Notes under the pieces: model-generated
The model's input: only the letters and a program-made list of their open reading frames with translations
Told to the model about the DNA's origin: nothing
Database searches by the model: none
Assembly (NCBI GenBank): GCA_963626175.1
Contig: CAVFWY010000002.1
Span: 1 to 41,069 of the forward strand
Reading direction: 5' to 3'
DNA length: 41,069 nt
Source: Gemmiger sp.
Lineage (GTDB): Bacteria > Verrucomicrobiota > Kiritimatiellia > RFP12 > UBA1067
In this document: one piece after another, positions 15,320 to 40,023 of the stretch
Layout of the letters: each line of letters begins with the position of its first letter
How positions within the stretch are numbered: position 1 is the stretch's first letter
Program-made: the position numbers and the translations under genes

Positions 15320-16486
15320 TCAGCGGGTTGTGCGGAATGTTGTGGGGGATTTTCCAAAGACGCTGGTGAAGATATTGCAGAAATACTGCGGCGTATGGAA
15401 TCCCGTGCGTTTGGCAACATCCGCAATGGAGAGATCGGTCTTGTTGAGCAGCCGTTTGGCCTCATCGAGTGCAACGCGGCGGATTTCCGCTTGGACGGAT
15501 GTTCCCAGGTTTGCGCGGAACGCGGAATTGACGTTTGTGTGGGAGCGACCAAGTGCCGCGTAGACATCCTGTGCGGAAAGATGGTGGTTGATGTTTCGCC
15601 GAATGTAGATGAGCGCATCGGCGAGCCACGGCGGGTCGAGCGGAAAGATATTGGTTGAGGATCGCTCAATCAGGTCGTTCGGTTTGACAATCTTCGGTTC
15701 GAACGGAATTGAATCCCCTTCGAGCGCGTGCGAGAGCGATTCCGCCGCGACGAATCCGAGCGTGGTCGCGTCCGGATCGATGGAGGAAAGCGTCGGGGTG
15801 ACGAAGTTGCAGATGAGCGTGTCGTTATCTACGCCCAGTACGGCGACTTCCTGTGGCACGGCAATACCGGCAACCTCACAGGCCATGATGACTTGCAGTC
15901 CCCGCAAATCGTTCGCACAGAAGAGTGCGATGGGCTTCGGCAGGGATTTCAGCCAGCGGATAAGTTGTTTGGAGTCGGGGGCGGAATCGAGCTGTTCGCC
16001 GCGCACGGCATTGGAGGCGAAGGTGTGCGCCACGGATGCCGCGCTTGTGTAGACTTCAACGGCGTGTCGGTGATGTTCAAGGTAGCGGATGAAGGAATCT
16101 CTGCGGAAGTCCGAGAAGGGTTGACCATCATAACCGCAGAATGCGAAGCGCGTGAAATGATGCTCGATAAAGTGCCGCGCCGCGAGTTTGCCGATCGCGG
16201 CATTATCCTGCCAAATCCCACGCACGGCTCGTGCATCATAGCGAGTACGGCAGGCGAGATCCACAACGACCCCTTGCGCACTCGCGAGAAGACTTTCGAG
16301 CAGGGGGTCGGGTATGTGGGTGATGAAGCCATCAAAGTCCGTCGGCGTGGCGGACTTCTTGAAATCGGCGGGTTTGAGCAGGGTGAGCGACCAGTCGGGC
16401 TGGGTTTGGGCGAAGGTGCAGATGCCCTCGCAGATATTGCGCCCCCACGAGCGATCCCATTCAATGCAGATTCCGATTCGTTTCAT
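15320..16486 (-). CDS. XylR-type transcriptional regulator (periplasmic-binding-protein-like sugar domain plus AraC-family HTH)
   Basis: 388 aa. The N-terminal ~270 aa are LacI/PBP type I-like without an N-terminal HTH. The C-terminus is a double AraC HTH (LSIADVAKRTGFHTPQYFCNIFTSVFGKSPTTFR). The gene is divergent from the glycoside hydrolase cluster. Confidence 0.8.
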   Translation of the reverse strand: MKRIGICIEWDRSWGRNICEGICTFAQTQPDWSLTLLKPADFKKSATPTDFDGFITHIPDPLLESLLASAQGVVVDLACRTRYDARAVRGIWQDNAAIGKLAARHFIEHHFTRFAFCGYDGQPFSDFRRDSFIRYLEHHRHAVEVYTSAASVAHTFASNAVRGEQLDSAPDSKQLIRWLKSLPKPIALFCANDLRGLQVIMACEVAGIAVPQEVAVLGVDNDTLICNFVTPTLSSIDPDATTLGFVAAESLSHALEGDSIPFEPKIVKPNDLIERSSTNIFPLDPPWLADALIYIRRNINHHLSAQDVYAALGRSHTNVNSAFRANLGTSVQAEIRRVALDEAKRLLNKTDLSIADVAKRTGFHTPQYFCNIFTSVFGKSPTTFRTTR

Positions 16487-16816: not shown

Positions 16817-16870
16817 AGACGGCTTGGATGGGCAAAAATTGTAAGCGAATATGCAAAAAGTGTAAGTGAC

Positions 16871-16921
16871 AGGAGGAGGCATTTTATGTTAAAATTGTGG
16901 CGTAATATTCCTTGGAAGTGA
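16871..16921 (+). promoter_or_regulatory. Strong Shine-Dalgarno sequence (AGGAGGAGG) plus an 11-codon mini-ORF (MLKLWRNIPWK) upstream of the beta-helix gene
   Basis: AGGAGGAGG is at 16871-16879, the ATG at 16886 and the TGA at 16919-16921, 27 nt before the ATG at 16949. An alternative reading of the same DNA is an extended -10 box, TGTTAAAAT, at 16887-16895. Confidence 0.25.
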
Positions 16922-16948: not shown

Positions 16949-19439
16949 ATGCGGATAAGTCTGGTCAAAACCGTAATGATGGCAGGAATTGCCGCGCTTG
17001 TTCAAGGCGCGATGGCGGGGACGATTACTGTCAGCCCGGGCGAGGATCTCGCCTCGGCGATTGGAAGTGCCGCAGATGGGGATGTGGTTTCGCTTGCGTC
17101 CGGACGGTATGAACTTGCATCTACGATTGGACTTGCGAACCGCAAGAATCTGACTATCCTGGGGGGGGGGGGGTATATCCTCAACCGTCATCACGCTGGC
17201 GGAAGGCGTGCAGGCGCGGCACTTCAAGGTCACGAACTGTGAGGGCATCACCTTCCGAAACCTAACTTTCACAGGCGGTACGACAACAGCAACGGCAGAC
17301 GACACGACTTCGGCGTTCGGCGGCGCGGTGTTCGCATCGAAGGTGTCCGGACTGACGTTCGATTCGTGCGCCTTTACGAAGAATGCGGCGAACAACGGAA
17401 CGGCGGCGGTCGATGCGAAGGGCGGTGCGCTTGTGCTTGTCGATTCGACGACCGTTCTCAAAGATTGCACCTTCACCTTCAACTCGGCTGTTGCGGGTCA
17501 AAGCAAGGCGGCGCAGGGCGGTGCGATTTATGTCAGCAATGCCGAGGGTGCGAATGCTGCGACTTGGCGCGTCACGCTCGCGATGACGAATGTGACCATC
17601 CGCGCCAATTGGGTGCAGGGTACGACGCAGGCCGGCGCGGCAATCGCGGGAACGAGTGCGGGGCTGGATGCCTACAACTGCCTCATTTCGGCGAACGGAT
17701 ACGCGGGTGGTGTGGCATGTTGCGGCGCGGTCGAGTGCGAAGGAGTGGGTTCGTTCACCGTCTTCACGCAGAGTACGCTCACGGACAACATGGTTGCGCG
17801 CGCGGTGTGGAACTCGGACAACAAGTTTAATCCCGTCTTTATCCGCTCGGCAATTGCCGGACAGCCAGGTATCGGCGAACGCTGGAACTGGAGCGGCGAT
17901 CGCGGGGCCGTGCTGATCGATTCGGTCTATCAGCAGAATGACGACGGGCCTCTCGCGCCGCTTGTGGAGGGCAAGTCCGTCACGGTGTGCGGCAAGTCGT
18001 TCACAGCATCCAATTCCGTGCGCGGCAATCCGCAGTTCGTCGGGGAGGGCGAAGCCACGGCGACGGCGGCGAAGGAACGCAATGCCGGCTGGCGGCCCGT
18101 CGATGGGCGAACCTACGCGGCAATTTACGTCGCCCCGAACGGCAGCGATGCGGCGGGAAACGGCTCATCCGCCGCGCCGTTCCGTTCGCTGACGAAGGCG
18201 GTGAGCGCGGCGGAATGCGGGACGACCATCCACCTCGCCGAGGGGACATATGCGCCGAGTGCGGGTGAAACGCTCCCGATTGATCTCTCCTTCAAGGAAT
18301 GCCTGACCATCTGCGGTGTCGGCGCAGGGAAGACGGTTTTCAACGGCGAGCAGGGTGAGAAGGGTGCGGACGCGGTGCGGCTTTTCACGATTGCGGATGC
18401 GCCGCAGATTCGTTTCAAGGATTTGACCATCACCGGCGGCTATGTCGAGACGGCGGTGAAGGGAAATCCCTCCGTGGCACTCATCGCACAGGCAAATGGA
18501 CTCATCTTCGAGAATGTGGCGTTCGCGGGCAATTCGGTGCGGTCTACGAAGTCTGCGACAATCAACGGTCTGCTTGTCGCAGACTGCTCAAACATCAGAT
18601 TCTACGGCTGTTCGTTTGCAGATAATGCCTATCGGGCTTTCCGTAGTTGGGGGTATCTTTCTTATTTGGCGGGCGGACTTCTCGCGGCGACGGCCAGTTC
18701 CGTCACCATCGACCGCTGTGCGTTCCGCGACTTTACGATTGACCTGAGCGTCGGTTCGACTTACGGCAGTGCGAATACTTACATGGCGGAAGGGCTTCTC
18801 TTCTATCTCGACGGGCGAACCGGGTCGGGGACTTACCGCATTCGCAATTCGCTGTTCGTAGGAAACGGTAAGATCGTGAACAACACCAACGAGTCAACGC
18901 TTCGCGAATCTTCAACCTATCTCTACCTGCCGTCGATGAGTCCGATCAACAATGGGTGCAAGGAGTTTGCGGTCTTCGAGAACAACACGGTTCTGCACGA
19001 GAGTACGGGTTATTTCTTTGACATTGGGCAGTTGGGCTTGCGCGTTCGGAATTGCATCATCGCCGGGAAGGGCGGCAAGATCCTGACGCTCAGCCAGTAT
19101 GGGAGCGACCTGCCTGAAATCGCCTACGTCAGCAACACGCTGTTCGAGCGGATTGCGGAGGAGGATAATTCACTCCTGAAGTTCTGCAACTATTTGACCG
19201 AGGAAACGGTCTGGACAGGCGTGGCGAACTTCAAGAATGCCGACGCGGGCGATTACCGCCTGACGGACGATTCGGCGAACGCCCTCGACAAGGGGTGCGT
19301 CCAGCCGTGGATGGCCGACGCGACAGACCTTGAGGGAAATCCGCGCCTTGCCGGATTCTACTCGCAGAAGAATGCACTCCCCGACCTCGGGTGCTACGAG
19401 CGGCAGAAGATTTGGGGTCTCGTCATACGCATCCGCTAA
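16949..19439 (+). pseudogene. Secreted right-handed beta-helix protein with Pmp-type GGA[ILV]/FxxN repeats, frameshifted at a G13 tract (intact with G12 or G15)
   Basis: ORF 16949..17242 encodes a signal peptide plus TITVSPGEDLASAIGSAADGDVVSLASGRYEL...LTILGGGG. ORF 17208..19439 stays open back to the tract in the +1 frame (G)ISSTVITLAEGVQARHFKVTNCEGITFRNLTF. Removing one G joins the two into an ~829-aa protein. The C-terminus carries the DLEGNPR...PDLGCYE motif typical of beta-helix proteins. Confidence 0.8.
17161..17173 (+). repeat. Homopolymeric G13 tract (candidate slipped-strand phase-variation site)
   Basis: Thirteen consecutive G flanked by ATCCT and TATATCC. I saw no other homopolymer longer than about 7 nt in the window. 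The tract encodes the Gly run of LTILGGGG. Confidence 0.9.
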
Positions 19440-19459: not shown

Positions 19460-22400
19460 ATGATGAAGGTATCGAGATTGATTTGCGCGGCACTTCTGAT
19501 GAGTGCCGCGTGGACGGCGCAGGCCGAGCGGGGCCCGTTCGCGCGTGAACCGTTGCTGGGGCATATCCTTGAGAGGCGGACGGTTGAAGTGCTGGACGGG
19601 CCGTGGGAAATCGCGTCCGTCCAAACGGCGGTCGTCGCGACAAACGGCTTCGACCTGATGGGGAATCCGCCGGGGACGGTGAAGATCGTGCGAGATGATC
19701 TGGTCAACATCGCGGGCGTGACGAACTGGATGAAGGCGACGCTCCCGTGCAACCTGCGCAGTCTCTTCAACTGGAAACTGACGGATCTCGACACCTACCT
19801 TCACAAGTATACCTTCGTCACGCCGAAGGACTGGCGGACGGGTGATGGCGTGATTCTGAGTTTGGAGCGCATCGGCGAGAGTTTCGACATCTACATGAAT
19901 GGAATGTTGACGCGCACGGAGAATGCGATGGTCAATCTCTGCCGTCGGCTGGATGTGTCGGAAAATGTCAAGGAGGGTACGAACACGCTGGTCGTCGCCT
20001 TGCGGCAAGACGGGCGGCGGCATTTCTGGCAGGATCGCATCGACTGGTACCTGACGGATCATACGGTTGGCATTACGGCTCCCGTACACCTTGAGTTCAC
20101 GGGGAAGTGCTATATTCGCCGCGCCCATGTGATGACCTATCTGGAGCCGAAGCCGCGTCTCGTCTACGAGGCGAAGGTCGTCAACTTGTCCGATTCGCCG
20201 CGAAAACTGACGCTTTCGTGCAGGATTGCGGGTGCGCCGAAGATTACGGACAAGGTTGTTGAAGCGTCCCCGGGGGAGACGACGGTGTGCGCGACCTTCG
20301 ACTGGCCTGCGCCGCACCTGTGGAGTCCGGCGGATCCCTATCTCTACAACGCCGACTTCACGCTATCGGAAGGCGGGGCGCGAATGGACGCACTCCGTAC
20401 GCGGTTCGGTTTCCGCGAGGTGAAGGCGAAAGGCCACCGTATGTACTTGAACGGCAAACCCATCATCTTCCGCCGTACCACGGCGCATCCGGGTGGCGAC
20501 TTCTCGACGGAGGAGGAGATGAAGGAAGGGTTCGCGCGTCTGCGGAAGGATGGCATTGTCGCGTTGCGCGTTCGCTGGTCCGAGCAGGAGCGGATTGCGA
20601 AAGCGGCGGACGAATGGGGCATGATGCTCGAACCGTGCGCCTATTCGACGATGGCGGCAGGCGGGCGGCCCGATGCCTATTGGCGCAAGTATGAGGCCTA
20701 TCTGCTTGAAATGGTCGATCAGTTGCGAGACCATCCGTCCATCGTGGACTGGGCGATTTCCAATGAATTCGGCACATTCTACCATGGCGAGGGTACGACG
20801 ATGGAAAAGGAAACGACTCCGAAGCAGGTGCGGGCGGGGCAACTTGTGGGCGCGGCGGATCCGACGCGCGTGTGGACGGCGTGCGGCGAATCGGATCTCT
20901 CCTATCCGGCGCGAAGCGACAAGGGCGGACCCGCGCCTGTAAGGTCGGTGCACTATCCGTTTCAGGTGACGGCCAACGGACACGAACTCCCGAACGCGGC
21001 GTATTGGTATGCGAACGGCGAGATCCCCTGGCAGGGGAATGGCAAGAAGGATAAGCCGCTTTTCATTTCAGAGGATATTTATCACGGCGCACAGGATTCC
21101 TTCCGCGGACTTTCCAAGTATGCGGGTGATCACCACTATGAAATGGAAGGAAAGTACGGCTATTTCAACACCTTGGCGTGGATTGTGCGGACTTATGCAG
21201 AAGGCTACTACTTCACGGGCATTGGCCAGTGGGAGCCGTGGTGTCTCTTCCCCGGCTTTGAGCCGCGTTGCCGCTTCTACGACAACGGGCCGGTGATGCC
21301 CGACTACCTATTCACTTTGCGTGAGTTTCCGCGCAATCTGTTCGCAGGGGAGACCGTGCCGCGAACGCTGATGTTCTACAACGAGTGGGTGACGGACATC
21401 ACGGGTTCGGTCGTGCGCACGGATCGGGTGCGGACGGCGGATGGTGCTTGGCGGGAAATCGGGCAGACGATTCTCGGAACGAATATCACGGTTGGCGCGG
21501 GCGAAAGTTGGACGCGGCAGATCGAGGTCGCCGCCCCGGCGGAAATGCCGTCCGGGAGCGATTGTGCGATGCGACTCGTCTTTCAGACGAAGGATGGAAT
21601 CGAGTTGGGGGTGCGAACCTTCCCGTTCAAAGTGTTCCCTCGTCGAGAGCGTCCCGATTTTCGTGGAATCAAGGTCTTTCGTTCCGTCGCCGACCTTTCG
21701 GAAACGCGACATCTTGTGGTGACGAACGTACTGACGACGCGCGAGGGCATCGAGATTGAGAAATGGGTGCGGCGCGGCGGTTCGGCCCTCTTCATCGATG
21801 TCGCGGAAAAGTCGTGGAGTCCCGTCGAGATTGACTACGGCAAGCGTGCGACGCGCGTCTGGCGGCGGATGCCAGGTTCGCTCCCGAACATCGCCGAGGA
21901 GACAATGCAGAGTTGGGAGCCGGATGGCTATCCGTCACTCGCGGCCATTCGCAAGGACGAGGAGGATGCGGACGTGCTGTGGGATGTCGGCGGCAAGGAC
22001 GGCCTGACGGGTGCGGCACTTGTGCGAGTCTATCGGGGCAAAGGCTCGTGGACAATCTGCCAGTTGCCGCTGATCTCGCGGTTTGGGATTGAACCGGCGG
22101 CCTCGGCTGTTCTTGATGCCGTGCTGGACGAGTTCGTGCACGAACATCGGCGACCGAGCGGAAGCGTGGCGGTCGTGGATGGAGCGGTGACGAACAATCC
22201 ACTTTCGGAACTGGTTGCCGCGATGGGGATTGCCACGCAGTCCGTCGAACGGGCGAAGTGCATTCTTGCAGACGGCGCGGCAGGCTTCGCTGGATTCGCT
22301 CAACTTGAAAAGTTGGCAAATGAGGGAAAGACGGTCATTGTGCTCAACCTGCCCGCGAATGCCGATACGAACATCCTCACGAAGTATGGTGTTCGGTTGA

Positions 22401-23509
22401 CGATCCCTGCGGAGGCATTGGACAAGGCGAATCGGCGCGGCAACGGCGTGAAGTTCGTCACCCACACGGAGGAGACGGGACTCCTCACGGGCGTTTCAAA
22501 CGACGACCTCTTCTGGTGGGATACGGCGAAGATGTCAGCCTGGACGCAGGCGAAGACGCTCGGCTGGCTTGTGCCGGCTGACGACTGGCGCGGAACGAAG
22601 ACGATGTATGCCGCGAGTTCGGTGATCGAACCGCTTGCCGGGAGCGCGGCGAAAATCTGCACGAGGCCGGGTGCCTGGGCGGAGTTCGACTGCGCAAAGG
22701 GCGGAAAACTCGTGCTTTCCACGTTGAAAATGACGACGTCTGCGAAGAACGCGGGTGCACAGGTTCAGCGCACCCTGCGGCGGATTCTGATGAATGCGGG
22801 CGTTTCGACCTCGGTGGACCGTCCGCCGTGTGAGACATTCCCCATCGACATCCGCGATGCCGCGAACCGAAACTTTTGGCAGGATCCGCGCTTTCAGAAG
22901 GCGGACGGAACATTTGCGCCGGACGGCTGGTTCGGCGGCGGAAATGACTTGCGGTATTTCCCCGTGAACCTGTGCGGCTGGTCGCTCGCATCCGCCGCGT
23001 ATTGTCCGAAGGAGCCGATGCCCGAAGATCCGCTGAAACTTGGCGGCGTACCGTTCAAGATGACGGATCCGCTGACGAACGGCGGGCGCGGCATTCTTGT
23101 GGTCAATCCGGGCGAGGTGCGCGAGATTGCCCTTGAAAAACCGCTCGCCGCCGACCGCATCCACTTCCTCGGCGCATTCGAGGCGTGGGAGCATCCCGAA
23201 GGATTGTGGGGCGGGCCGCCGACTCATTTTGCGGTTGAGATTACGGTTAACGACGAATCGAAGCCCGTGCAGATCGTCCGTCAGGGTGTGCACGTCGGCT
23301 GGTTTCGGATGTGCAATTCGCTCACGGAGGGCCGTGCGGCATGGACGGGGCGTACGCCATCCGATCCGACGGCGACGCTTTACCGCTGGACGGCTCATCT
23401 GCCGCGCACGACGAAGGTGGAGAAAATCACCTTCCGTCATACGGGCAACATTTCCGGCCTCGGCATCGTTGCCGTGACGGCGGAAAAGGATGTGGACATT
23501 GTCGAATGA
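19460..23509 (+). CDS. Large secreted GH2-like glycoside hydrolase (paralog A) with an uncharacterised C-terminal module
   Basis: The ATG at 19460 gives the signal peptide MMKVSRLICAALLMSAAWTAQA. GH2 hallmarks are present: WSPADPYLY, RTRFGFREVKAKGHRMYLNGKPIIFRR, WAISNEFG (acid/base NE) and PLFISEDIYHG. About 700 further aa follow. Confidence 0.8.
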   Translation: MMKVSRLICAALLMSAAWTAQAERGPFAREPLLGHILERRTVEVLDGPWEIASVQTAVVATNGFDLMGNPPGTVKIVRDDLVNIAGVTNWMKATLPCNLRSLFNWKLTDLDTYLHKYTFVTPKDWRTGDGVILSLERIGESFDIYMNGMLTRTENAMVNLCRRLDVSENVKEGTNTLVVALRQDGRRHFWQDRIDWYLTDHTVGITAPVHLEFTGKCYIRRAHVMTYLEPKPRLVYEAKVVNLSDSPRKLTLSCRIAGAPKITDKVVEASPGETTVCATFDWPAPHLWSPADPYLYNADFTLSEGGARMDALRTRFGFREVKAKGHRMYLNGKPIIFRRTTAHPGGDFSTEEEMKEGFARLRKDGIVALRVRWSEQERIAKAADEWGMMLEPCAYSTMAAGGRPDAYWRKYEAYLLEMVDQLRDHPSIVDWAISNEFGTFYHGEGTTMEKETTPKQVRAGQLVGAADPTRVWTACGESDLSYPARSDKGGPAPVRSVHYPFQVTANGHELPNAAYWYANGEIPWQGNGKKDKPLFISEDIYHGAQDSFRGLSKYAGDHHYEMEGKYGYFNTLAWIVRTYAEGYYFTGIGQWEPWCLFPGFEPRCRFYDNGPVMPDYLFTLREFPRNLFAGETVPRTLMFYNEWVTDITGSVVRTDRVRTADGAWREIGQTILGTNITVGAGESWTRQIEVAAPAEMPSGSDCAMRLVFQTKDGIELGVRTFPFKVFPRRERPDFRGIKVFRSVADLSETRHLVVTNVLTTREGIEIEKWVRRGGSALFIDVAEKSWSPVEIDYGKRATRVWRRMPGSLPNIAEETMQSWEPDGYPSLAAIRKDEEDADVLWDVGGKDGLTGAALVRVYRGKGSWTICQLPLISRFGIEPAASAVLDAVLDEFVHEHRRPSGSVAVVDGAVTNNPLSELVAAMGIATQSVERAKCILADGAAGFAGFAQLEKLANEGKTVIVLNLPANADTNILTKYGVRLTIPAEALDKANRRGNGVKFVTHTEETGLLTGVSNDDLFWWDTAKMSAWTQAKTLGWLVPADDWRGTKTMYAASSVIEPLAGSAAKICTRPGAWAEFDCAKGGKLVLSTLKMTTSAKNAGAQVQRTLRRILMNAGVSTSVDRPPCETFPIDIRDAANRNFWQDPRFQKADGTFAPDGWFGGGNDLRYFPVNLCGWSLASAAYCPKEPMPEDPLKLGGVPFKMTDPLTNGGRGILVVNPGEVREIALEKPLAADRIHFLGAFEAWEHPEGLWGGPPTHFAVEITVNDESKPVQIVRQGVHVGWFRMCNSLTEGRAAWTGRTPSDPTATLYRWTAHLPRTTKVEKITFRHTGNISGLGIVAVTAEKDVDIVE

Positions 23510-23528
23510 ACAATGAAAGGAAAAATAG

Positions 23529-24656
23529 ATGAACGTAAAGGTTGAAAGCATGGCACAAGGGCAAGGTTTCACTACGCGCAGAGGTTTCATCGGCGGCATC
23601 GCGGCATTTGCGGCGGTCACGGGCGTGGAGGATGTCTTCGCGAACGATTCTGCCGCGTTGGCGGCGACAAAGCGGTGGTTTAAGGATGCGCAGTTCGGAC
23701 TCATGGCGCACTGGGGACTCTATACACTTTTGGGCGGAGAGTGGAATGGGCGACCGGGCGCACATCCTTACGGTGAATGGATTATGCATGCCAACAAAAT
23801 CCCAATTCGTGAGTATGCCGCGCTTGCAAATGCCTTCAATCCAATTCTCTTCAACCCAAAAGAGTGGATGAAGCGGGCGCGGGATGCTGGCATGAAGTAT
23901 TTCGTTATCACCGCGAAACACCATGACGGCTTTGCGCTCTATCATTCGCGTGTCTCGACTTACAATGTCGTTGATGCGACACCGTTCCGTCGGGATGTTG
24001 TTGGAGAACTCGCCGAGGCCTGTCGAGAGGCGGGCATTCGATTCGGACTCTACTATTCGCAGGATGTCGATTGGCACGAGCCAAACGGAGGTGGTCGTCA
24101 TCTCGACTACGGCCACTACAAGGATATCCTAAAGGTTTCCGACGAGAAGCGCGTTTGGGGGAACGACTGGGACTTCCCAGATGATTCTGCTTACGACTTT
24201 CAGCGTTATTTGGATGAAAAGGCGATGCCACAGGTTGACGAACTGCTCACGCAGTACGGCGACCTTTGCCTTCTCTGGTTCGATGTGCCGACGACGCTGA
24301 CGCGCGAACAGTCCGAGGCATTTGTCCGACTTGTTCGCAGGCGGCAGCCCGGCTGTCTCGTGTCGGGGCGTATCGGCAACGGACTTGGGGACTACGAAAC
24401 GCCCCATGACAATCAGATTGCGAGTAAGACGGAGACGGACAAACTCTATGAGACCGTTGGGACGATGAACGAGTCTTGGGGCTATCGTCCGACGGATACG
24501 AACTACAAGAGCGTCAGTGAGATTCTCGCGATCAAGGAAAAGTGCGCGGCGATAGGATCAAATTACATGCTCAATGTCAGTCCGGATCCACTCGGTCGTA
24601 TTCCCGTTGCGGGAATCAATATTCTTGAAGGCCTTGCGAAGGCTCGTCAGGCATAA
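23529..24656 (+). CDS. Alpha-L-fucosidase, GH29, with a Tat-type signal
   Basis: TRRGFIGGIAAFAAV is a twin-arginine signal. WFKDAQFGLMAHWG, YFVITAKHHDGFALYHS and LLWFDV are GH29 motifs. Confidence 0.85.
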   Translation: MNVKVESMAQGQGFTTRRGFIGGIAAFAAVTGVEDVFANDSAALAATKRWFKDAQFGLMAHWGLYTLLGGEWNGRPGAHPYGEWIMHANKIPIREYAALANAFNPILFNPKEWMKRARDAGMKYFVITAKHHDGFALYHSRVSTYNVVDATPFRRDVVGELAEACREAGIRFGLYYSQDVDWHEPNGGGRHLDYGHYKDILKVSDEKRVWGNDWDFPDDSAYDFQRYLDEKAMPQVDELLTQYGDLCLLWFDVPTTLTREQSEAFVRLVRRRQPGCLVSGRIGNGLGDYETPHDNQIASKTETDKLYETVGTMNESWGYRPTDTNYKSVSEILAIKEKCAAIGSNYMLNVSPDPLGRIPVAGINILEGLAKARQA

Positions 24657-24668
24657 TCAGAGGTCAAT

Positions 24669-26075
24669 ATGATGGTGAAAAAACAAATGATGGCAAAAAA
24701 GCGGATTGTCTTGTTTTCAGGGATTTCCTTCGTATTGCTGGCGCAGGCTTCGCCAATTGCGATAAAATGCTATCAGAGTTCAAAAGCGCGCCCGTTCCGC
24801 GAGGTCAAGTCGTTTGTTCCGTTCAGTCCGCATGCCTATGCGGAGGGGACGGATCTCATTGACCTTGATGCGGCGAAGCCATCCCACAAGTTCTTGGGGT
24901 TGGGCGTTTCGTTTGCCGAGGCGAGTTGCAAGATTCTGATGGATCTGCCGCAGGAGACGCGAGAGAAGGTTCTGCGGATGCTGTGGACAAAGGATGGCAT
25001 CAACCTTTCCGTGGGCCGTTTGCATGTCGGATGTTCGGACTATTCGGTTCAGATGACATCTTACGACGATGTGAAGGATGACTTTGAACTCAAGCACTTC
25101 TCCATCGACCGCGATAGGCGGTATGTCCTTCCCGTGGTGAAGGAGTCCGTTGCGCTCAATCCGAACCTCTATTTGTTCTCGTCCGTTTGGACGGCACCGG
25201 GATGGATGAAGATTAACGGCGAGTTGTGCGGTGGTTGGATTAATCCGAAGTGTTTGCCCGTCTTCTGTAATTATTATGTGAAATATCTGAAGGCGTACCG
25301 TGACGAGGGGCTGACTATTCGCGCCCTGACCTTGCAGAACGAACCGTATTCGGATCAGGATGCCCAGAGTGCGGACTGCAAGTGGGGTCCGGCGGATGAA
25401 ATGGAGGCTGCGGGCAGACTGATGCCACTGCGTTTGAAGGCGGCGGGGCTTGAGACGAAGATTTGGCTTTTCGACTCCGAACCGAACGACTGGCGGCGTA
25501 TTTTGTGGGAATTGCGTGATCGCGATGTCGCGGCAAATGCCGGTGGAATAGCTTGGCATTCCTACGGAAGCGATCCTGAGCACATACGGAAAGTGCGGGC
25601 GAAGCATCCGAATTTGCCGATGTACCACACGGAGATGGGACCTCTTGCCGATCGGGATGCGCGGCCTCTCGTCTGGTGGGGGCAGCTTGTGACGCGCTAC
25701 CTGAACGCGGGATGCAGCACGTTCACGGGGTGGTGTCCGGTGCTGGATGAAGACGGGCTTCCGAATACATCGCGAGGCTTCTGCTGTGGAGGATTGATAG
25801 AAGTCCATTCCGAGACTCGGGAAATCCGCACATCGGGGCAGTACGACTTCTTCCGTCATATCGGGCCGTTTGTCGAACGCGGGGCGGATATTCTGGAGGC
25901 TCCGGCGGGGCGTACGGTGACGGCTTTTCGCAATCCTGACGGATCGTATGTGATTGTCGCGGCGAATGCGAGCGACAACAAGGAACGCAAAATGCAGTTG
26001 CAGGTGAAGTTCAGGGGAGAATACAATTCTTTTCAACTTCCCAGCGGAACGGTTTCGACGATTGTCTTGAAGTAA
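24669..26075 (+). CDS. GH30-family glycoside hydrolase (glucosylceramidase/xylanase-like fold)
   Basis: It has a signal peptide. GLGVSFAEAS, SSVWTAPGWMK, LTLQNEP (acid/base) and MYHTEMG (nucleophile) are GH30 motifs. Confidence 0.8.
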   Translation: MMVKKQMMAKKRIVLFSGISFVLLAQASPIAIKCYQSSKARPFREVKSFVPFSPHAYAEGTDLIDLDAAKPSHKFLGLGVSFAEASCKILMDLPQETREKVLRMLWTKDGINLSVGRLHVGCSDYSVQMTSYDDVKDDFELKHFSIDRDRRYVLPVVKESVALNPNLYLFSSVWTAPGWMKINGELCGGWINPKCLPVFCNYYVKYLKAYRDEGLTIRALTLQNEPYSDQDAQSADCKWGPADEMEAAGRLMPLRLKAAGLETKIWLFDSEPNDWRRILWELRDRDVAANAGGIAWHSYGSDPEHIRKVRAKHPNLPMYHTEMGPLADRDARPLVWWGQLVTRYLNAGCSTFTGWCPVLDEDGLPNTSRGFCCGGLIEVHSETREIRTSGQYDFFRHIGPFVERGADILEAPAGRTVTAFRNPDGSYVIVAANASDNKERKMQLQVKFRGEYNSFQLPSGTVSTIVLK

Positions 26076-26109
26076 GTGCACCAACAGAAACGAAAGGAAG
26101 AGTTTGTCT

Positions 26110-27954
26110 ATGCGAACGAAAGGAATAATTGGTAGCCTGTGCGCGGTTCTCGCGTTGACGGGAGTGAGTGGCGAGGTACAGTTGCCGACGATGGGATGGT
26201 CGAGTTGGAATACCTATCGTGTCCACATTAACGAAGAATTGATCCGCAAGCAGGCCGATGCCCTGATTGACGGTGGGTTTGCCGCTGTAGGCTACCGCTA
26301 TGTCAACATTGATGACGGATGGTTTGGCGGGCGTGATGCGAACGGTCGTCACAAAACGAACCCGACACGCTTCCCGAACGGGCTTAAGCCACTTGTTGAC
26401 TACATCCATGCGAAGGGACTGAAGGCCGGTATCTATTCCGATGCTGGCGAAAATACCTGCGGAAGTATGTTCGACAACGATGTTTTGGGTATCAAGGTTG
26501 GTTTTTATGGTCATGATGCGCAGGATGCCGACTTCTTCTTCGATGAAATGGGCTTTGACTTCATCAAGATTGATTTTGGCGGCGGTACGCCCGAGGGAAA
26601 CGAGGCGCATATCTGGATGGACCCCAAGGAACGCTATACGGCCATCGCTCGGCAGATTGCGCGTGTTGCCAAGAAGACCGGGCGGGAGATTCGGATGAAT
26701 GTCTGCTGCTGGCGTTATCCCGGCGCGTGGGTGTCGGATGTCGCCGGATCTTGGCGCATCAGCGGAGATGTGGCCGCGACATGGGAGTCGGTCAAGGGCA
26801 TCATCGACAAGAACTCGTACTTCGCGCGATTCCAGAAACCGGGCCATTATAATGACATGGATATGCTTGAAGTCGGTCGAGGCCTGACGGAGGAAGAGGA
26901 TAAGACCCATTTCGGCATGTGGTGCATGATGGCTTCGCCCCTGCTGATAGGTTGCGACCTGACGACAATTAAGCCCGAGACGGCGGCATTGCTCAAGAAT
27001 ACCGATTTGATTTCAATCAATCAGGATCCGCTCGGCAGGCAGGCCGAGGTGTTTTCGCGCGATTGGAAATATGATATCCGCGTCTATGTGAAGCCGCTCG
27101 CACCCAAAAACTCGCGTAACATGGCAATTGCGCTCTATAACGGTGAGGATACGGAGCGGGAAATCACGGCGGAACTTGATGCAATCGGGTACGGACTTGC
27201 GGATGTCTCGGTCTACGACTGCTTTGAGCGCCGTCAACTTGCGCCCGCACGGAAGTCGTTGACGGTCAAGGTTCCACCTCATGGGACGCGCATTTTCAAA
27301 ACGGCACAAATGCCTGTTCAAATCGCCCTGACATTTGATGACGGGCTTTCGGAACACTTTTCGCTGGTGGCTTCACGTTTGGAGAAATATGGGTGGAAAG
27401 GACTTTTCAACATCATTACGGATCAGGTCGGCACCACGAATCACCTGTCATGGAGTGAGATTCGCGCTCTCAAGGCGCAGGGATTCGACATTGGCTCCCA
27501 TACGCTTTCGCACCCCAATCTTGCGAAGTTGATTTCCGAGGGAAAGACCAATGAAGTTGTTCGGCAGATTGTGGAGTCGCGTGATCGGATTAAGGAGGAA
27601 GTCGGAACGGCTCCAGTTTATCTGTGCCATCCGTTCATTGCGATGAATGAGGAAGTCAATCGTCTGTGCCGCGAAAACAAGATGATTCCCATGTCGAAGG
27701 ATCGCGTCTGTTTTGGCGAATCGGCGAAGCGCGGCAGTTGGAATAGTATTGGGGCCTCAATTCGTCGATGGTATCATGACGGCGTTCGGGCGAAAGATGT
27801 GCTTGTGCACGGCATCACACCCAGTGGCGGCGGATGGATGCCGTTTGAGAGCATTGAGGAATTTGACGATTTTCTCGCGCAAATCAAAGAATGTGTAGAT
27901 GCGGGATTGGTCGAGGTTGTCTCGTATTCGGACTTTCTGAAGGCTAATGGGTAG
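26110..27954 (+). CDS. GH27 alpha-galactosidase / alpha-N-acetylgalactosaminidase-like domain fused to a CE4 polysaccharide deacetylase domain
   Basis: The N-terminal part carries MGWSSWN, YVNIDDGW, GIYSDAGENTC and YNDMDMLEVG (GH27). From about nt 27310 the sequence reads IALTFDDG and GSHTLSHPN (CE4 motifs 1 and 2). The ATG at 26110 is preferred over the TTG at 26104. Confidence 0.8.
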   Translation: MRTKGIIGSLCAVLALTGVSGEVQLPTMGWSSWNTYRVHINEELIRKQADALIDGGFAAVGYRYVNIDDGWFGGRDANGRHKTNPTRFPNGLKPLVDYIHAKGLKAGIYSDAGENTCGSMFDNDVLGIKVGFYGHDAQDADFFFDEMGFDFIKIDFGGGTPEGNEAHIWMDPKERYTAIARQIARVAKKTGREIRMNVCCWRYPGAWVSDVAGSWRISGDVAATWESVKGIIDKNSYFARFQKPGHYNDMDMLEVGRGLTEEEDKTHFGMWCMMASPLLIGCDLTTIKPETAALLKNTDLISINQDPLGRQAEVFSRDWKYDIRVYVKPLAPKNSRNMAIALYNGEDTEREITAELDAIGYGLADVSVYDCFERRQLAPARKSLTVKVPPHGTRIFKTAQMPVQIALTFDDGLSEHFSLVASRLEKYGWKGLFNIITDQVGTTNHLSWSEIRALKAQGFDIGSHTLSHPNLAKLISEGKTNEVVRQIVESRDRIKEEVGTAPVYLCHPFIAMNEEVNRLCRENKMIPMSKDRVCFGESAKRGSWNSIGASIRRWYHDGVRAKDVLVHGITPSGGGWMPFESIEEFDDFLAQIKECVDAGLVEVVSYSDFLKANG

Positions 27955-27959
27955 AAGAT

Positions 27960-30900
27960 ATGCGGTTATTTTGGCTGATATTGGCTGTTCTAATGAGTGG
28001 CTGTGGCGTTGTTGCCGCCACAGCCGACGATGACGATGCTTTGTGGAATCTTTATCCGCGTACGCCTTGGGTTGGGGAATGTCGTGAAATCATACCGCTG
28101 ACGGGGCCGAATGGTCCGGACTGGAAGGCGACCTTCACCAAGCAGACGCAGGGTGAATTCACGCGGATGGCGAGTACGGCAAAGTGCTATCGTTGGATTG
28201 ACGGGGCGGTGGACGAGGCGACGTCCAAATGGTATCCGATTCGGCTGCCGCAAGCCAAGTATACGCCTGTCGGCGAACCGGGTACGCCGCGCTGGCGGAT
28301 GAACGACCTTGTCGTCGGGTATTATGAGACGACATTCAGCCTTTCCGAAAATCAGGCGGAGAGGTGTATCTCGCTGAACTTTGAGTATATCGGCGTTCAC
28401 TATCGGGTTTGGTTGAACGGTAAACTCGCGGTCTACAATCCGCAGAGTTCGGGACATCTTGAATCGCACGACATCACGCCCTTCGTGCAGAAGGGCGCAA
28501 ACACGCTTCGCATACAGGTTGCCCCGAAATGCGGGGAGGACGACAGTTGGGTGGAGTGGGTCTGGAATCACGCGCCACCGGGGATTTTGCGTCCCGTCTA
28601 TCTGGAGGTGCGAAACCCTGTTGCGATTGAGCGTGTTGTCGTCCGTACGACACTTGAGCCGCGCAAGGAGATGACGGTTCTCTTTTCCGTGACGAATGCA
28701 AGTAGCCGCGCTTTTTCGGGGCGTGTGGTGGCTGGCGGCAAAGGGGACGCGGCGGAACCGCCGATGTTCGAGGCGGAGGTCAATTTGCGTCCGGGTGAAG
28801 GCAAGACTGTTTCCGTCACGCATCCGTGGGGCGCTGCGGACTTGTGGAGTCCCGCCACACCGCGACTTTATCGTTTGGCGTCCACGCTTCAGGACAAGAC
28901 GGGTACGGTTGACCAGTATCGCGTACGGTTTGGCTTTCGTGAATTGAAGTGGAAGGGGACGAATCATCGGGCGGTCTTGAACGGTCATCCGTTCACCATG
29001 CTTCGTTCGACTTTCGGAACTTATTCCTACGATTCGACGAAGAATCGCGCTCATTTTGCCATGCTCCGCAAGCGCGGCTTTGTCGGCGAACGATTCTACA
29101 CGAGTGCGGAGCATATGGATTTGGCGCGCGTGGCGGATGATGCGGATGAGTTCGGCTTTCTTCTGACGACCTGCATCGGCAGTAGCAGTGGGGCAGGGGC
29201 AAAGACGGATGTCTTTTTCAAGCGGAATTGGCCGCGTCTGATCGGAAAGATGATGGATCAGTGCATGAATAATCCGTCCATCATCTGCTGGGGGCTTTCC
29301 AATGAGTTTGGTTATGTTTACGGTGGTTTCAACAACATGACGAATGCCGTCAGGCAGGGAGAGGTTGGCGAATGGGTGCAGAAAAAGGATCCGACACGCC
29401 CGTGGGTCTGCCATGGTGACGTGGAACTGCGTTGGGACAAGGAAGGCCCGATGCCGATTCGCTCGCTACACTACCCTTATCAACTCTCGTGGCATTCGCT
29501 TCCACAGGCCGGGCGGTGGTATGCGGACGGCAAAAATCCGTGGCAAGGGGCATTCACAAATGACAAGCCAGTTTCCGTATCGGAAGACATCTATCACGGA
29601 TTTCAGGATGTGCATACGCCGATGTCGAAGACTCCGTTCGGCGATCTGATTTACACGAAGGAGGGCTACATCGGAGCCTTGCGCTACTGTTTGCGGAGTC
29701 TCTGGGAGGGATATTGCCTCGGCGGAGTCGCGGGGTGGAATCCGTGGTGCGTTGATGAAAACATTGCGAAGAATCCCATCTTTGAGGAGGGCGAGTTCTC
29801 GCCGACAACCTCCTACTTGCTGATGCTCAAGGAGTTCCCTCGCAATGTGTGGGGCGGACGGCGGACGGATTACACGCTCGTCGCCTTCAACAAGTGGTTT
29901 GCGCCTGTGGAGGGAACGCTTTCGGCTGTTATTCGCATGAAGGGGAAAGTCATATCTGCGGCAGGGCCAATCGACCTTTCCCTTCCGAGTGGAGGCGAAC
30001 GCACCTTGCCCTTGCCGTTTGATGCACCCAAGGTCTCGCAGCCGACGGCGGCAGAATGGGTTCTGACATGGAAGGAGAAGTCGGGGCGTGTTCTCGCGAG
30101 GGAAACGATTGAACTTCAGGTCGTGCCGCGCCTTTCGTCCGCGAGACTCTCCATCCCCGATTCCGTTGCCGCCGTCTTGACGAAGACGAATTCGCCGTTG
30201 ATGCGAACCAAGTTTCCGCTGGGAGTCCATGCCCGTGTTGCCAGCGCACTTGCACGAAAGCCAGCCGCCGTTGTCGTGCATGGTCCGCTTCTCGCGCAGG
30301 ATGCCCAGTTGCTTGACGATTTTGCACGAAAAGGCGGACGCATCCTGCAGATTGAACCGGGGCGGATGGACTGGTGTCTCGTTGAATTGCCGCAGGACGA
30401 TTGGGGACGACCCCATGCCTTTGCATTTCGCCGCGATGAACGCAAGATGACATCTATTCCAGAGGCGACGATGCGCACGTGGTGGCCTGACGGCACCTTG
30501 GGTCGCACAACCTTTCGGAAGCCAATCGCCGAGGATTCGCGTGTCCTGTGGGATTCCGCGCAGGGGGATGGCGTTCGGTGGGCGGATGTCGCGTGGTTTT
30601 GGCGGGGAAAAGGCGGTTGGCTGATTTCGACCGTTCCCGCACTCGAACGGATCGCCGTCGAACCGATTGCCGCCCACTTCGTGCAGGCGCTTGTGGATGA
30701 ATTGGTCAATCCGGCGAGCCGCGCCCCTCAACGGAAGGTCGTTTTGATTGAGAACACGGCTTCAACCAATCAAGAGGCTGTCGCAACACTCTTCAGGCAG
30801 TTTGAGGCTTCGTTCACGACCATGAAAGTGCCGCAAAAACCCTTGTCGAAGACGGCATATGCAAAGTCGGTTTTTGTACTCGATGCGCACGGGGCGAGCC

Positions 30901-32117
30901 TTTCCGCCGTGCAGAAAGCGTTTGTGCGTGATGCATACGAACGGCGTGGGAGCGTCTTCCTAATTGACATGGGGAAGGATGAAGATGCCGCGTGGTTGGA
31001 TTTTCTTGGCATGGCGTGGGAACCATCGAAGGAGAAAGTCATGAAACTACGCAATCCAGACGAACCCGGCAGCCTGACCGAGGTTTCGACGGCGCGGCAC
31101 TTCTTCGTCCGAAAGGGAAATTCGGGCCTGATGGCGGGCATCAATAATGAAGACCTTTTCCTATTCGACCACGGAAAAATGCAGCAGATTGGCAATGATT
31201 GGATGGGCTTGGAGTCCTATCCGTTCATTGTGCCGTGGATGAAATGGACGGTTGGCGAACCCGTGAATGCGTATTTTGTGCCGTCTAAACCAACAACGGT
31301 GGTGCTGACCGAGCCGGGGGCAATCGGCATGAAGCACGAAAAGGGACGGGGACTCGTCGTGTTTTCAACTGTGTCGTTGACAAACAAGGACTATGGCGCG
31401 GCAAATCTCGACAAGATTTACACGGTCGTTCGTGCGATTCTCAACAATGCTGGGTGTGCGACGCGGCAGATGACGGATCCCGCGCACTTTACTCCGCTCG
31501 ATCTCACCTCGCTCGTCAATGCCGCGTCGTGGCGGAAGCCCGGCTTCAAGGGCGCGTGTTCGGGGGATGTGGAAGGTGGCGACTACCGCTATTTTCCGGT
31601 GAATCAGTGCGGATGGAGTCTTGCCTCCAACAATTATTGCCCGGTGGAGGAGTTTCCCAAAGTGCCGCTGAGTTATGACGGGGTCTCGTTCAAGTTTGTT
31701 GATCCGGCGGTAGCGGGCGGGCGAACCATCCTCTTCTCGTCGGAGGGCAACCCATCCTACGAAGTCAAACTGCCGCGCAAGATGAAGGTGAAAAAAGTCC
31801 ATTTCCTTGGTTTCAGCGTTTGGTTCAAAGGCCCGGCCTTCGTGTCGTTCGGTGCACAGGAAAAGAGAATTCCGATGGAGAAGGGCGTGCATTTTGACAA
31901 CTATCGGAACTTTGGAGGCTCGTTGGCGAACGGTAAACTCGTCTATTCGGGGGACTGGGATGTCTCGCCGAGCGAGCGAACGGCGAAGACGGCGCGGCAG
32001 AAGATGTGCGTGTTCCACTGGTCGATTGAGAATCCGAATCCTAATGAACCGATTGAGTCAATCATGTTGTCGGAAATGAAGAAACTTGGAATCTTCGCAA
32101 TCACCGTTGAAGATTAA
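27960..32117 (+). CDS. Large secreted GH2-like glycoside hydrolase (paralog B) with the same C-terminal module as paralog A
   Basis: It has a signal peptide. WSPATPRLY, RVRFGFRELKWKG, WGLSNEFG and PVSVSEDIYHG align with paralog A along the whole length, at roughly one third identity by eye. Confidence 0.8.
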   Translation: MRLFWLILAVLMSGCGVVAATADDDDALWNLYPRTPWVGECREIIPLTGPNGPDWKATFTKQTQGEFTRMASTAKCYRWIDGAVDEATSKWYPIRLPQAKYTPVGEPGTPRWRMNDLVVGYYETTFSLSENQAERCISLNFEYIGVHYRVWLNGKLAVYNPQSSGHLESHDITPFVQKGANTLRIQVAPKCGEDDSWVEWVWNHAPPGILRPVYLEVRNPVAIERVVVRTTLEPRKEMTVLFSVTNASSRAFSGRVVAGGKGDAAEPPMFEAEVNLRPGEGKTVSVTHPWGAADLWSPATPRLYRLASTLQDKTGTVDQYRVRFGFRELKWKGTNHRAVLNGHPFTMLRSTFGTYSYDSTKNRAHFAMLRKRGFVGERFYTSAEHMDLARVADDADEFGFLLTTCIGSSSGAGAKTDVFFKRNWPRLIGKMMDQCMNNPSIICWGLSNEFGYVYGGFNNMTNAVRQGEVGEWVQKKDPTRPWVCHGDVELRWDKEGPMPIRSLHYPYQLSWHSLPQAGRWYADGKNPWQGAFTNDKPVSVSEDIYHGFQDVHTPMSKTPFGDLIYTKEGYIGALRYCLRSLWEGYCLGGVAGWNPWCVDENIAKNPIFEEGEFSPTTSYLLMLKEFPRNVWGGRRTDYTLVAFNKWFAPVEGTLSAVIRMKGKVISAAGPIDLSLPSGGERTLPLPFDAPKVSQPTAAEWVLTWKEKSGRVLARETIELQVVPRLSSARLSIPDSVAAVLTKTNSPLMRTKFPLGVHARVASALARKPAAVVVHGPLLAQDAQLLDDFARKGGRILQIEPGRMDWCLVELPQDDWGRPHAFAFRRDERKMTSIPEATMRTWWPDGTLGRTTFRKPIAEDSRVLWDSAQGDGVRWADVAWFWRGKGGWLISTVPALERIAVEPIAAHFVQALVDELVNPASRAPQRKVVLIENTASTNQEAVATLFRQFEASFTTMKVPQKPLSKTAYAKSVFVLDAHGASLSAVQKAFVRDAYERRGSVFLIDMGKDEDAAWLDFLGMAWEPSKEKVMKLRNPDEPGSLTEVSTARHFFVRKGNSGLMAGINNEDLFLFDHGKMQQIGNDWMGLESYPFIVPWMKWTVGEPVNAYFVPSKPTTVVLTEPGAIGMKHEKGRGLVVFSTVSLTNKDYGAANLDKIYTVVRAILNNAGCATRQMTDPAHFTPLDLTSLVNAASWRKPGFKGACSGDVEGGDYRYFPVNQCGWSLASNNYCPVEEFPKVPLSYDGVSFKFVDPAVAGGRTILFSSEGNPSYEVKLPRKMKVKKVHFLGFSVWFKGPAFVSFGAQEKRIPMEKGVHFDNYRNFGGSLANGKLVYSGDWDVSPSERTAKTARQKMCVFHWSIENPNPNEPIESIMLSEMKKLGIFAITVED

Positions 32118-32140
32118 AGGATATAAGGTAGACGAAGGAA

Positions 32141-33574
32141 ATGAAAATGGAGTCAACGAGGCGATCATTCTTGACGGGAACGCTGGGGGCGGGCATCTGT
32201 CTGACTGGAATAGGGCGGGCATTTCAGTCCGTGGCAGGGACGCAGTCGGGTGAAATCCCGAATTTGAAGGTCGGTATTTTGAGCGACATTCACATGAATT
32301 ATCAGCGCCTTGACGAGGAGGGCGAGTTGTTGCGACGGACGCTGATCTACTTCTCGGAACGCGGCGTAGATGCCGTGCTGATGGCGGGGGACTTGGCCGA
32401 TTCGGGTTATGTTGACGAACTGGAGAGGATCGGCGAGGTGTGGCGTACTGTTTTCCCCGATGACAAGGCTCCTGACGGTCGCGTCGTCACTAAGCTCTTC
32501 CTCTACGGCAATCACGATGCGCGTGGATTCGGGCGTGGTTCGTGTCCGTGGACGACCGAACGGAATCCTCGGTATATTGCGATGGATCGGGCGGGATGGT
32601 GGAAGCGTTGCTTTGATGAAGACTATGCGCCGATCTATGCCAAGACCGTGAAGGGCTACACCTTCATTTGCGGGCACTGGGATACGATTGCCGGTGTAGC
32701 TGCGATGCCGGAATTCATTGAAAAGATGCGTCCACAGTTGACGGGAACGAAGCCGTTCTTCTATGCGCAGCATCCGCATCCGAAGAATACCAACTCAGGT
32801 CCGTGGGCGTGGGGACACGATGACGGAACCTCGACGCGCATTCTTTCGTCCTTCCCAAATGCGGTGGCATTTTCAGGCCACTCCCATACATCCCTGACGG
32901 ATGAACGCGTGGTTTGGCAGGGTGAATTTACCTCGATTGGCACGAGTTCGCTCAGTTATGCGTCCATCGAATACGCCTATCGTGAAAATACATATGTCAC
33001 CGACACGCGGCACGATACCCGTCCGCCGCGCATGAAGCCGCTCGACACATGGGATGGGAAACAAGGACTGCTGATGTCCGTTTATGACGATCGAATCGTT
33101 TTGGAGCGGCACGACTTCCTTCACCGACTACGGCTTGGCGACGACTGGGTGATTCCCATCTCCGCGCCCCCCGTCGGCGAATCTCCGTTTGACTTCAAGC
33201 GCCATGCCGCCGCGCGTACGGCCCCGGCATTCGCGGCGGATGCGGCGGTGGCGGTCAGGGCGGATGCGGCGGAAAAGGCTTGGGTCGTCACATTCCCCGG
33301 TGCGCACGGACGGAACGGTTGCCGCGTCTTTGAGTATGAGGTGACGGCGGTCGGGGTGCAGGAGGATGTGGAGATGGTTCTTGCCCAACGGCGGGTGCTC
33401 GCTGTGGATTTTCATCTTCCGGAAAGCAAGACTCCGCCAGCCGGGTCTTGCATTTTCGCTTGGGAGGACATGACGAATACGATGCCGGTTCGGTTTGAGG
33501 TCCGTCCGATGGAATGTTTTGGGCGAAAAGGCGCGGCTATTGTCTCGTCGGTTGTTCTGAGACCCATCACTTGA
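32141..33574 (+). CDS. Calcineurin-like metallophosphoesterase with a Tat-type signal
   Basis: TRRSFLTGTLGAG is a twin-arginine signal. GILSDIHMN, MAGDLADSG, YGNHD, CGHWD and SGHSH are metallophosphoesterase metal-ligand motifs. Confidence 0.8.
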   Translation: MKMESTRRSFLTGTLGAGICLTGIGRAFQSVAGTQSGEIPNLKVGILSDIHMNYQRLDEEGELLRRTLIYFSERGVDAVLMAGDLADSGYVDELERIGEVWRTVFPDDKAPDGRVVTKLFLYGNHDARGFGRGSCPWTTERNPRYIAMDRAGWWKRCFDEDYAPIYAKTVKGYTFICGHWDTIAGVAAMPEFIEKMRPQLTGTKPFFYAQHPHPKNTNSGPWAWGHDDGTSTRILSSFPNAVAFSGHSHTSLTDERVVWQGEFTSIGTSSLSYASIEYAYRENTYVTDTRHDTRPPRMKPLDTWDGKQGLLMSVYDDRIVLERHDFLHRLRLGDDWVIPISAPPVGESPFDFKRHAAARTAPAFAADAAVAVRADAAEKAWVVTFPGAHGRNGCRVFEYEVTAVGVQEDVEMVLAQRRVLAVDFHLPESKTPPAGSCIFAWEDMTNTMPVRFEVRPMECFGRKGAAIVSSVVLRPIT

Positions 33575-33622
33575 ACTGAATGCCGATAAAATGATAGAAT
33601 GTGCACACAAAACAGGAGGAAA

Positions 33623-39985: not shown

Positions 39986-40023
39986 AACAGATTTCTTTAA
40001 CAACAAATAAGGGATAATCGACG

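Follow-up and report, generated by a model that had tools for sequence, protein, structure and literature searches.

A candidate poly-G contingency switch at the start of a probable glycan-degradation operon from an uncultured gut bacterium

The split beta-helix gene and its surroundings

We analyzed a 41,069-bp stretch of metagenome-assembled DNA (contig CAVFWY010000002.1, positions 1 to 41,069; about 60% G+C; hereafter the window), in which a homopolymer of 13 consecutive G (G13; 17161-17173) splits the gene for a putative secreted beta-helix protein at the head of a glycan-degradation locus. The tract is the sole homopolymer longer than 6 nucleotides (nt) in the window, where base composition predicts 0.009 to 0.04 runs of at least 13 G or C. 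It begins 212 nt into an open reading frame (ORF; 16949..17242) that reads MRISLVKTVMMAGIAALVQGAMA/GTITVS... through ...NLTILGGGG and then continues for 22 out-of-frame residues to a TGA at 17240-17242, yielding a product of 97 amino acids (aa) that ends ...LTILGGGGYILNRH.... From the tract onward, the +1 frame stays open as far as 19439 and is called as a 743-aa ORF starting at a GTG at 17208. When the tract was rebuilt in silico, G12 and G15 gave continuous proteins of 829 and 830 aa, respectively (...LTILGGGG(G)ISSTVITLAEGVQARHFKV), and G11, G13, G14, and G16 all ended after 97 to 105 aa. We refer to tract lengths that restore the long protein as ON and to the others as OFF. The initial annotation had described the G13 run and its position in the gene, the upstream frame with its stop at 17242, the downstream frame open back to the tract, the restoration of a protein of about 829 aa at G12 or G15, and the lack of any comparable homopolymer in the 41 kb (the next-longest run is 6 nt); all of this was borne out by the sequence. 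The main features of the window are as follows.

16949..17242, plus strand: upstream ORF encoding the 97-aa OFF product, with putative signal peptide, first strands of the N-terminal beta-helix cap, and out-of-frame tail
17161..17173, plus strand: G13 homopolymer, the candidate switch itself
17174..19439, plus strand: body of the beta-helix gene in the +1 frame, intact, encoding the rest of beta-helix domain 1, the linker, domain 2, and the C-terminal tail
16866..16895, plus strand: promoter-like site GTGACA-18-TAAAAT with TG (consensus scan, 10/12 matches; a consensus match only)
19460..40857, plus strand: eight downstream genes, assigned by Pfam, encoding GH2, GH29, GH30, GH27+CE4, GH2, metallophosphoesterase, FAD-oxidoreductase+GH2+GH97, and GDSL esterase (GH, glycoside hydrolase; CE, carbohydrate esterase)
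15320..16486, minus strand: regulator with a periplasmic-binding-protein-like sensor and an AraC-type helix-turn-helix domain (Pfam Peripla_BP_3, 1.4e-33; HTH_18, 6.6e-18)
2-76, minus strand: tRNA-Glu (anticodon TTC) at the very start of the contig (Rfam scan)

Homopolymeric contingency loci carry a run of about 8 nt or more of G or C in the 5′ part of a coding region, a length that G13 exceeds. At G12, the tract would be read as CTG GGG GGG GGG GGT (L-G-G-G-G); elsewhere in the window, glycine runs draw on a mixture of codons, and only 26% of glycine codons are GGG. The N terminus of the upstream ORF resembles a signal peptide by inspection, as had been proposed earlier, with R2/K7, a hydrophobic core at residues 8-18, and AMA/G, and the 829-aa beta-helix protein is predicted to be exported. 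A Shine-Dalgarno-like stretch (AAAGGAAAAAG) lies just 5′ of the ATG at 16949, and the promoter-like site lies 54 nt 5′ of this codon. Reinitiation at GTG 17208 was considered as a source of functional product and was ruled out, as no Shine-Dalgarno sequence lies at the proper distance from this codon and the downstream frame encodes no signal peptide.

Nine same-strand ORFs, the beta-helix gene and the eight genes that follow it, span 16949 to 40857 with gaps of 20, 19, 12, 28, 5, 23, 24, and 38 nt. Most encode GH- or CE-type domains, including an alpha-L-fucosidase (GH29), so that the 24-kb glycan locus of the initial annotation is real. The nine genes probably form one operon, given their orientation and spacing. 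The order beta-helix, GH2, GH30 is kept in relatives. A single 2,128-aa ORF (33599-39985) joins a FAD-dependent oxidoreductase domain, a GH2-like region, and a complete GH97, an unusual giant multidomain architecture for a carbohydrate-active enzyme. The AraC-type regulator gene is transcribed divergently from the beta-helix gene and likely encodes a substrate-responsive activator of the locus; a regulator of this type also adjoins the beta-helix gene in relatives, but on the same strand, and it is not orthologous. The first 15 kb of the window carries housekeeping genes (DprA, HAD, ThiC, an ABC/GldG-like set, and ExbB/TonB); because of the ExbB/TonB genes, the host is taken to be a Gram-negative-type bacterium. 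Cluster look-ups of housekeeping proteins from the window gave neither names nor accessions, and a guess that places the host in the PVC group of phyla (Planctomycetes, Verrucomicrobia, Chlamydiae, and relatives) found no support in the analyses. An Rfam scan of the window matched the tRNA alone, with no match near the tract, and no type IV pilin-like N termini were found among the window proteins.

Tract length and evolution of the gene in relatives

The relatives of the window that we compared are gut metagenome assemblies, and all tract lengths reported here are those of assembled consensus sequences. Orthologues of the beta-helix protein (816 to 827 aa, 60 to 64% identity) head syntenic strings of beta-helix, GH2, and GH30 genes, and full-length orthologues are conserved down to 35 to 41% identity. 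In the lineage of the window (lineage A), the tract is G13 in the window and G12 in contigs L011 and L015, with identical flanks (CTGACTATCCT...TATATCCTCAACC). L011 is 97.6% identical to the window at the nucleotide level, and L015 is 99.3% identical in the 5′ region. The lineage A protein P0011 (...LTILGGGGISSTVITLAEG...) matches the predicted 829-aa product exactly, and the 97-aa OFF product of the window is itself on record (P0037, with NCBI and Logan listed as sources); a search with the OFF product returned only itself. A scan of JGI metagenomes with the family alignment detected no relatives. The corresponding scan of GTDB genomes detected one 3.2-kb contig, L015 (CAVDWI010000173.1), in a metagenome-assembled genome (MAG) of Barnesiella intestinihominis. 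L015 has a G+C content of 57.6% and is 97 to 99% identical to the window. Barnesiella genomes have a lower G+C content than this, and L015 is very likely a mis-binned contig, whose bin label carries no taxonomic information.

A second lineage (lineage B, 64% aa identity) carries the same pure tract between diverged flanks (CTCCTG-Gn-TATGTCC). Four of its contigs come from different runs and share 99.95% identity over 12.6 kb; two have G12 (L001 and L014) and two have G13 (L012 and L013), and they otherwise differ by one 3-nt indel and two single-nucleotide polymorphisms. Tract state and the 3-nt indel occur in all four possible combinations (4/4), and change must therefore have been recurrent at the tract or at the indel site. 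The G13 contigs encode a 116-aa N-terminal fragment and a 746/747-aa ORF from an ATG right after the tract; three more lineage B proteins are in frame. In a third lineage, the 82-aa fragment P0101 ends LLGGGVYLRPSSR*, having entered the -1 frame directly after the glycine run, and would correspond to an allele of about G11. Other lineages form the same turn by interrupted runs (GGGAGGGGG, GGAGGGGG, or GGGGAGGGG) or by longer glycine-rich loops; the interrupted runs of the sister lineages are locked forms. Across the tally, seven alleles are in frame and four are out of frame, and the frameshift is always at the tract. The initial annotation had suggested comparing tract length in related genomes or MAGs. 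That comparison recovered both G12 and G13 in each of two lineages rather than one fixed in-frame length, so that, at the level of consensus sequences, close relatives carry both in-frame and out-of-frame alleles, as is characteristic of contingency loci.

Two further kinds of disruption were observed in this gene family. In L003, from an 86%-identical lineage (~757-761, homologous to window ~17544-17552), the tract is interrupted (GGGGAGGGG) and a +1 frameshift at a G5 run (GACGGGGGCGAA versus GAGGGTGCGAA) leaves ORFs of 260 and 635 aa; this frameshift is either a real second route of inactivation or an assembly error. In several assemblies of another lineage, the orthologue (proteins P0019 and P0030, 732 aa) is followed after ...NIGQKK by a tail of unrelated sequence; a second ORF of 130 aa, P0018, which restarts with MIVRNC..., was seen on up to seven contigs. 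From the protein sequences, the gene appears to have been interrupted toward its 3′ end by an insertion.

Beyond the tract, the OFF allele of the window is intact, as expected at a contingency locus. Its 743 downstream codons contain no stop and no second frameshift, and the ratio of nonsynonymous to synonymous divergence (dN/dS) against the ON alleles L011 and L015 is 0.33; the further inactivating mutations that had been named as the mark of a dead gene were thus not found. Although lineages A and B are separated by a dS of ~1.1, four synonymous positions within the tract have stayed G; under neutrality the probability of this is roughly 0.03 to 0.08, and preservation of tract purity under neutrality appears unlikely on this comparison. 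At nonsynonymous sites, the beta-helix gene (17208-19439) evolves 5 to 6 times faster than the neighboring GH2/GH30 genes (19460-26075) when the same pairs of genomes are compared, with a dN of 0.26 versus 0.045 and a dN/dS of 0.23 to 1.0 versus 0.06 to 0.16; its dS is also higher. From the 3′ end of the gene onward, lineages A and B share 88% of their DNA sequence, and the rest of the gene is too diverged for megablast. When compared with P0004, proteins P0008 and P0034 have a mosaic N terminus of ~95 aa, with a different signal peptide and first cap (MKNLMTIVVSAL...GATDGETVI) and no glycine run, joined to a body more than 90% identical to alleles that bear the tract region. This pattern suggests that the N-terminal module has been exchanged by cassette-like recombination. 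Fast evolution and a mosaic N terminus fit an exposed product under fluctuating or diversifying selection.

The encoded protein

Pfam searches with the beta-helix protein matched DUF1565 (4.7e-13) and Beta_helix (3.8e-10), and a Pel9A-like_beta_helix signature is precomputed for all homologues. An AlphaFold (AF2) model of the 829-aa protein built with 25 homologues was confident, with a predicted local distance difference test score (pLDDT) of 79.8 and a predicted template modeling score (pTM) of 0.83; a model from nine sequences (pLDDT 53.8) was too poor, and all structural statements refer to the 25-sequence model. In this model, two right-handed beta-helix domains (about residues 23-305 and 390-780) are joined by a disordered linker (~307-388). 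Foldseek searches with the model matched two-domain alginate lyases of polysaccharide lyase (PL) family PL6 (E = 7.5e-10) as well as Pel9A and a PL9 rhamnogalacturonan lyase (TMt 0.52); lacto-N-biosidases, RbmB, and tailspikes were also matched, and no autotransporter passenger was among the top 50. A sequence search of the PDB with the family profile gave no match. The modeled protein thus resembles a carbohydrate-active enzyme, either a polysaccharide lyase or a hydrolase. With AlyGC, BcAlyPL6, Pel9A, and the Bacteroides PL9 rhamnogalacturonan lyase it shares two beta-helix domains, Pel9A-like/DUF1565 signatures, and a polysaccharide-utilization context (Foldseek E = 7.5e-10 to 3e-7), but sequence identity to these lyases is just 10 to 17%. 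We know of no PL6/PL9 lyase of this group that is phase variable.

The glycines encoded by the tract are residues 72-75 and fall, in the model, in a loop between strands 69-71 and 79-83 of beta-helix domain 1, where pLDDT drops to 77 between blocks of 96 and 94. G72 is invariant among the 25 homologues, the alignment consensus at the turn is GxG, and distant homologues carry GAGK or GAGS there. The conserved GxG turn accommodates either three or four glycines, so that the protein pays little for carrying the repeat. At the other end of the protein, all homologues share a C-terminal tail (window 19380-19439) that consists of LPD[LI]GCYE, about six polar or basic residues, and G[LF]xxxx[RK] and is kept at 35 to 40% identity; it may serve as a signal for sorting or anchoring.

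The initial annotation had also pointed to motifs of the chlamydial polymorphic membrane proteins (Pmps) and drawn a parallel with Chlamydia pmp genes. The motifs are present: three GGA[ILV] motifs alternate with FxxN (FTKN and FTFN) at residues 124-190 (expected 0.25, P = 0.002), and FxxN occurs six times in all. True Pmps contain far more GGA[ILV] and FxxN motifs than this protein. The Chlam_PMP repeat (PF02415/TIGR01376) gave no match in Pfam at E ≤ 10 or in NCBIfam at E ≤ 1, and PMP_M and autotransporter domains gave no match even at E ≤ 10. Given these results and the PL6/PL9-like fold, membership of the chlamydial Pmp family was ruled out. The resemblance to Pmps therefore holds for the motifs and for the mechanism but does not extend to the protein family.

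A candidate contingency switch and its alternatives

We propose, with a probability of roughly 0.7, that the G tract, located in the 5′ coding region of the gene that opens the glycan-degradation operon, acts as a slipped-strand contingency switch for a secreted two-domain beta-helix protein. At G12 (or G9 or G15), the signal peptide would be fused in frame to the rest of the 829-aa protein (ON). Gain or loss of one G during replication would give G13 or G11, at which translation would end after about 97 aa and the protein body would be neither made nor exported (OFF). The window allele would then be OFF and one slippage step from ON, and the four glycine codons would be placed in the conserved GxG turn, at low cost to the protein. 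In two lineages, both ON alleles and OFF alleles were found among near-identical genomes, which supports, at the level of comparative genomics, the phase-variation switch that had been put forward as a candidate from the window alone. We infer that the ON/OFF differences arise by reversible slippage in vivo at a high rate and that switching is under selection, with phage, antibody, and fluctuating substrate as possible agents.

Several observations weigh against this proposal. Every tract length is an assembler consensus, in some cases at low coverage (one relative is labeled cov 5). G tracts are error-prone in PCR and Illumina sequencing, and their lengths in databases can be wrong (PMC9187656; PMC8808543). 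The only lengths seen at the DNA level are G12 and G13, and a freely switching tract might give more. Three of the four lineage B runs come from one accession series, which makes these samples nonindependent. Finally, the gene is broken in other ways in some relatives (L003; P0019/P0030), and it could be dispensable.

The first of the alternatives is a homopolymer miscall, in which the true tract is G12 everywhere, the G13 and G11 alleles are artifacts of library preparation, sequencing, or assembly, and the window gene is intact. Long G tracts are known trouble spots for polymerases and for Illumina sequencing (PMC9187656; PMC8808543), the evidence comes entirely from metagenome-assembly consensus, and random miscalls would also produce the four combinations of tract and indel in lineage B. 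We nevertheless regard this explanation as unlikely, as tracts of more than 14 nt are where Illumina sequencing mainly fails according to the cited review (PMC8808543), and out-of-frame calls occur in four assemblies from three lineages, different projects, and different assemblers. The 97-aa product of the window is sourced from both NCBI and Logan, and the same contigs carry no other frameshifts across 12 to 41 kb. Polymerase stutter mostly contracts tracts, and the three OFF alleles seen as DNA (3/3) are all expansions, the opposite of the usual pattern. Even if the window length were a miscall, the conserved pure G12 would remain a hypermutable site.

A second alternative, that the +1 frameshift is a fixed loss of function in a gene heading to decay, is very improbable. 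Lesions of other kinds in relatives (the +1 at G5 in L003 and the insertion-type truncation of P0019/P0030 with P0018) would fit such decay, and dN/dS values of up to 1.0 between some lineages are compatible with relaxed constraint. However, the window allele has kept a 743-codon frame without a stop or second frameshift, its dN/dS against ON alleles is 0.33 and not about 1, and its lesion is exactly one repeat unit at a single hypermutable site. The ON length is present in near-identical genomes, and full-length orthologues are kept down to 35 to 41% identity.

Long homopolymers can induce slippage of RNA polymerase, and G13 could in principle be expressed by such slippage or by ribosomal frameshifting as a constitutive, low-level, full-length protein. 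We give this hardly any credence: a -1 slip in the transcript would correct the 1-nt offset, and slippage by several polymerases is discussed for Bifidobacterium breve (PMC9187656), but DNA length differences between near-identical genomes already account for ON and OFF, and in-frame G12-type alleles are the majority (7/11). Recoding of this kind can coexist with a switch at the DNA level.

If the tract is a contingency switch, its reach could extend beyond the beta-helix gene. Because the operon is tightly spaced, polarity on the downstream genes is possible. A broader scenario, in which the tract gates the whole 24-kb hydrolase operon via polarity so that subpopulations stochastically toggle glycan foraging, and in which the clade uses poly-G tracts generally, is speculative and on balance doubtful. 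The 2.2 kb left untranslated in the OFF state contains one C>G, rut-like stretch (18866-18962); with just this one stretch, Rho-dependent polarity was unsupported from the sequence. A second G12 was observed in a sister lineage (L004 501-512 and L005 222-233). It is intergenic, lies 25 nt 5′ of a TATAAT box, and precedes MatE, AraC, and beta-helix genes in this order; GATGGGCGC occupies the same place in L006-L008 and L010. This tract may be a promoter-spacer switch and hints at wider use of poly-G tracts in the clade.

The closest described system is the intragenic G-tract switch of the sortase-dependent pilus operons of B. breve UCC2003 (bbr_0113 and bbr_1889; Penno et al. 2022, PMC9187656), in which each of two operons begins with a pilin gene whose signal-peptide ORF is cut off from the rest by the tract, with downstream polarity and enrichment of the ON length in vivo (PMC9187656). 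As in that gut commensal, the poly-G tract of the window interrupts the gene at the head of an operon and separates a short ORF for the signal peptide from a long one without a credible start or signal of its own; 1-nt slippage would restore the fusion, and equivalent tracts are kept in relatives. The host here is instead of the Gram-negative type (TonB/ExbB genes), and the product is not a pilin but a carbohydrate-active-enzyme-like beta-helix protein at the head of a glycoside hydrolase operon. In Chlamydia, pmpG/pmp10 genes contain poly-G tracts of 8 to 19 nt, and frameshifted and intact alleles are mixed among close relatives with no extra decay (PMC6740158). The locus described here shows the same population pattern of alleles and likewise has poly-G in a gene for a beta-helix protein with GGA[ILV] and FxxN motifs, but it is a single-copy gene in a catabolic operon and not a member of a paralogous adhesin family. 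It also shares with loci of Campylobacter, Neisseria, Haemophilus, and Helicobacter a G or C run in the 5′ coding region of a surface-related gene that sets ON or OFF by repeat number modulo 3. These classical loci mostly switch adhesins, lipooligosaccharide or capsule glycosyltransferases, restriction-modification methylases, and iron receptors in pathogens; by comparison, it is unusual for the target to be a locus for glycan degradation in an uncultured commensal.

In pathogens, phase variation driven by repeats belongs to textbook biology; in gut commensals, very few cases have been documented experimentally. Our literature search found no report of repeat-mediated phase variation controlling a glycan-degradation locus. 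The candidate described here belongs to a well-known kind of switch but has an unusual position, leading a glycan-degradation operon in an uncultured gut bacterium. For the split gene, annotation as phase variable is preferable to annotation as a pseudogene. If gating were operon-wide, the locus would be a repeat-driven, phase-variable polysaccharide-utilization locus, unlike the invertible-promoter systems of Bacteroides. If the switch is real, an uncultured gut bacterium rich in carbohydrate-active enzymes would hedge on whether to express a beta-helix enzyme that is exposed, and perhaps an entire catabolic operon, which would bear on evasion of phage and antibody, on cheater/producer dynamics for secreted enzymes, and on how "pseudogenes" are scored in MAGs.

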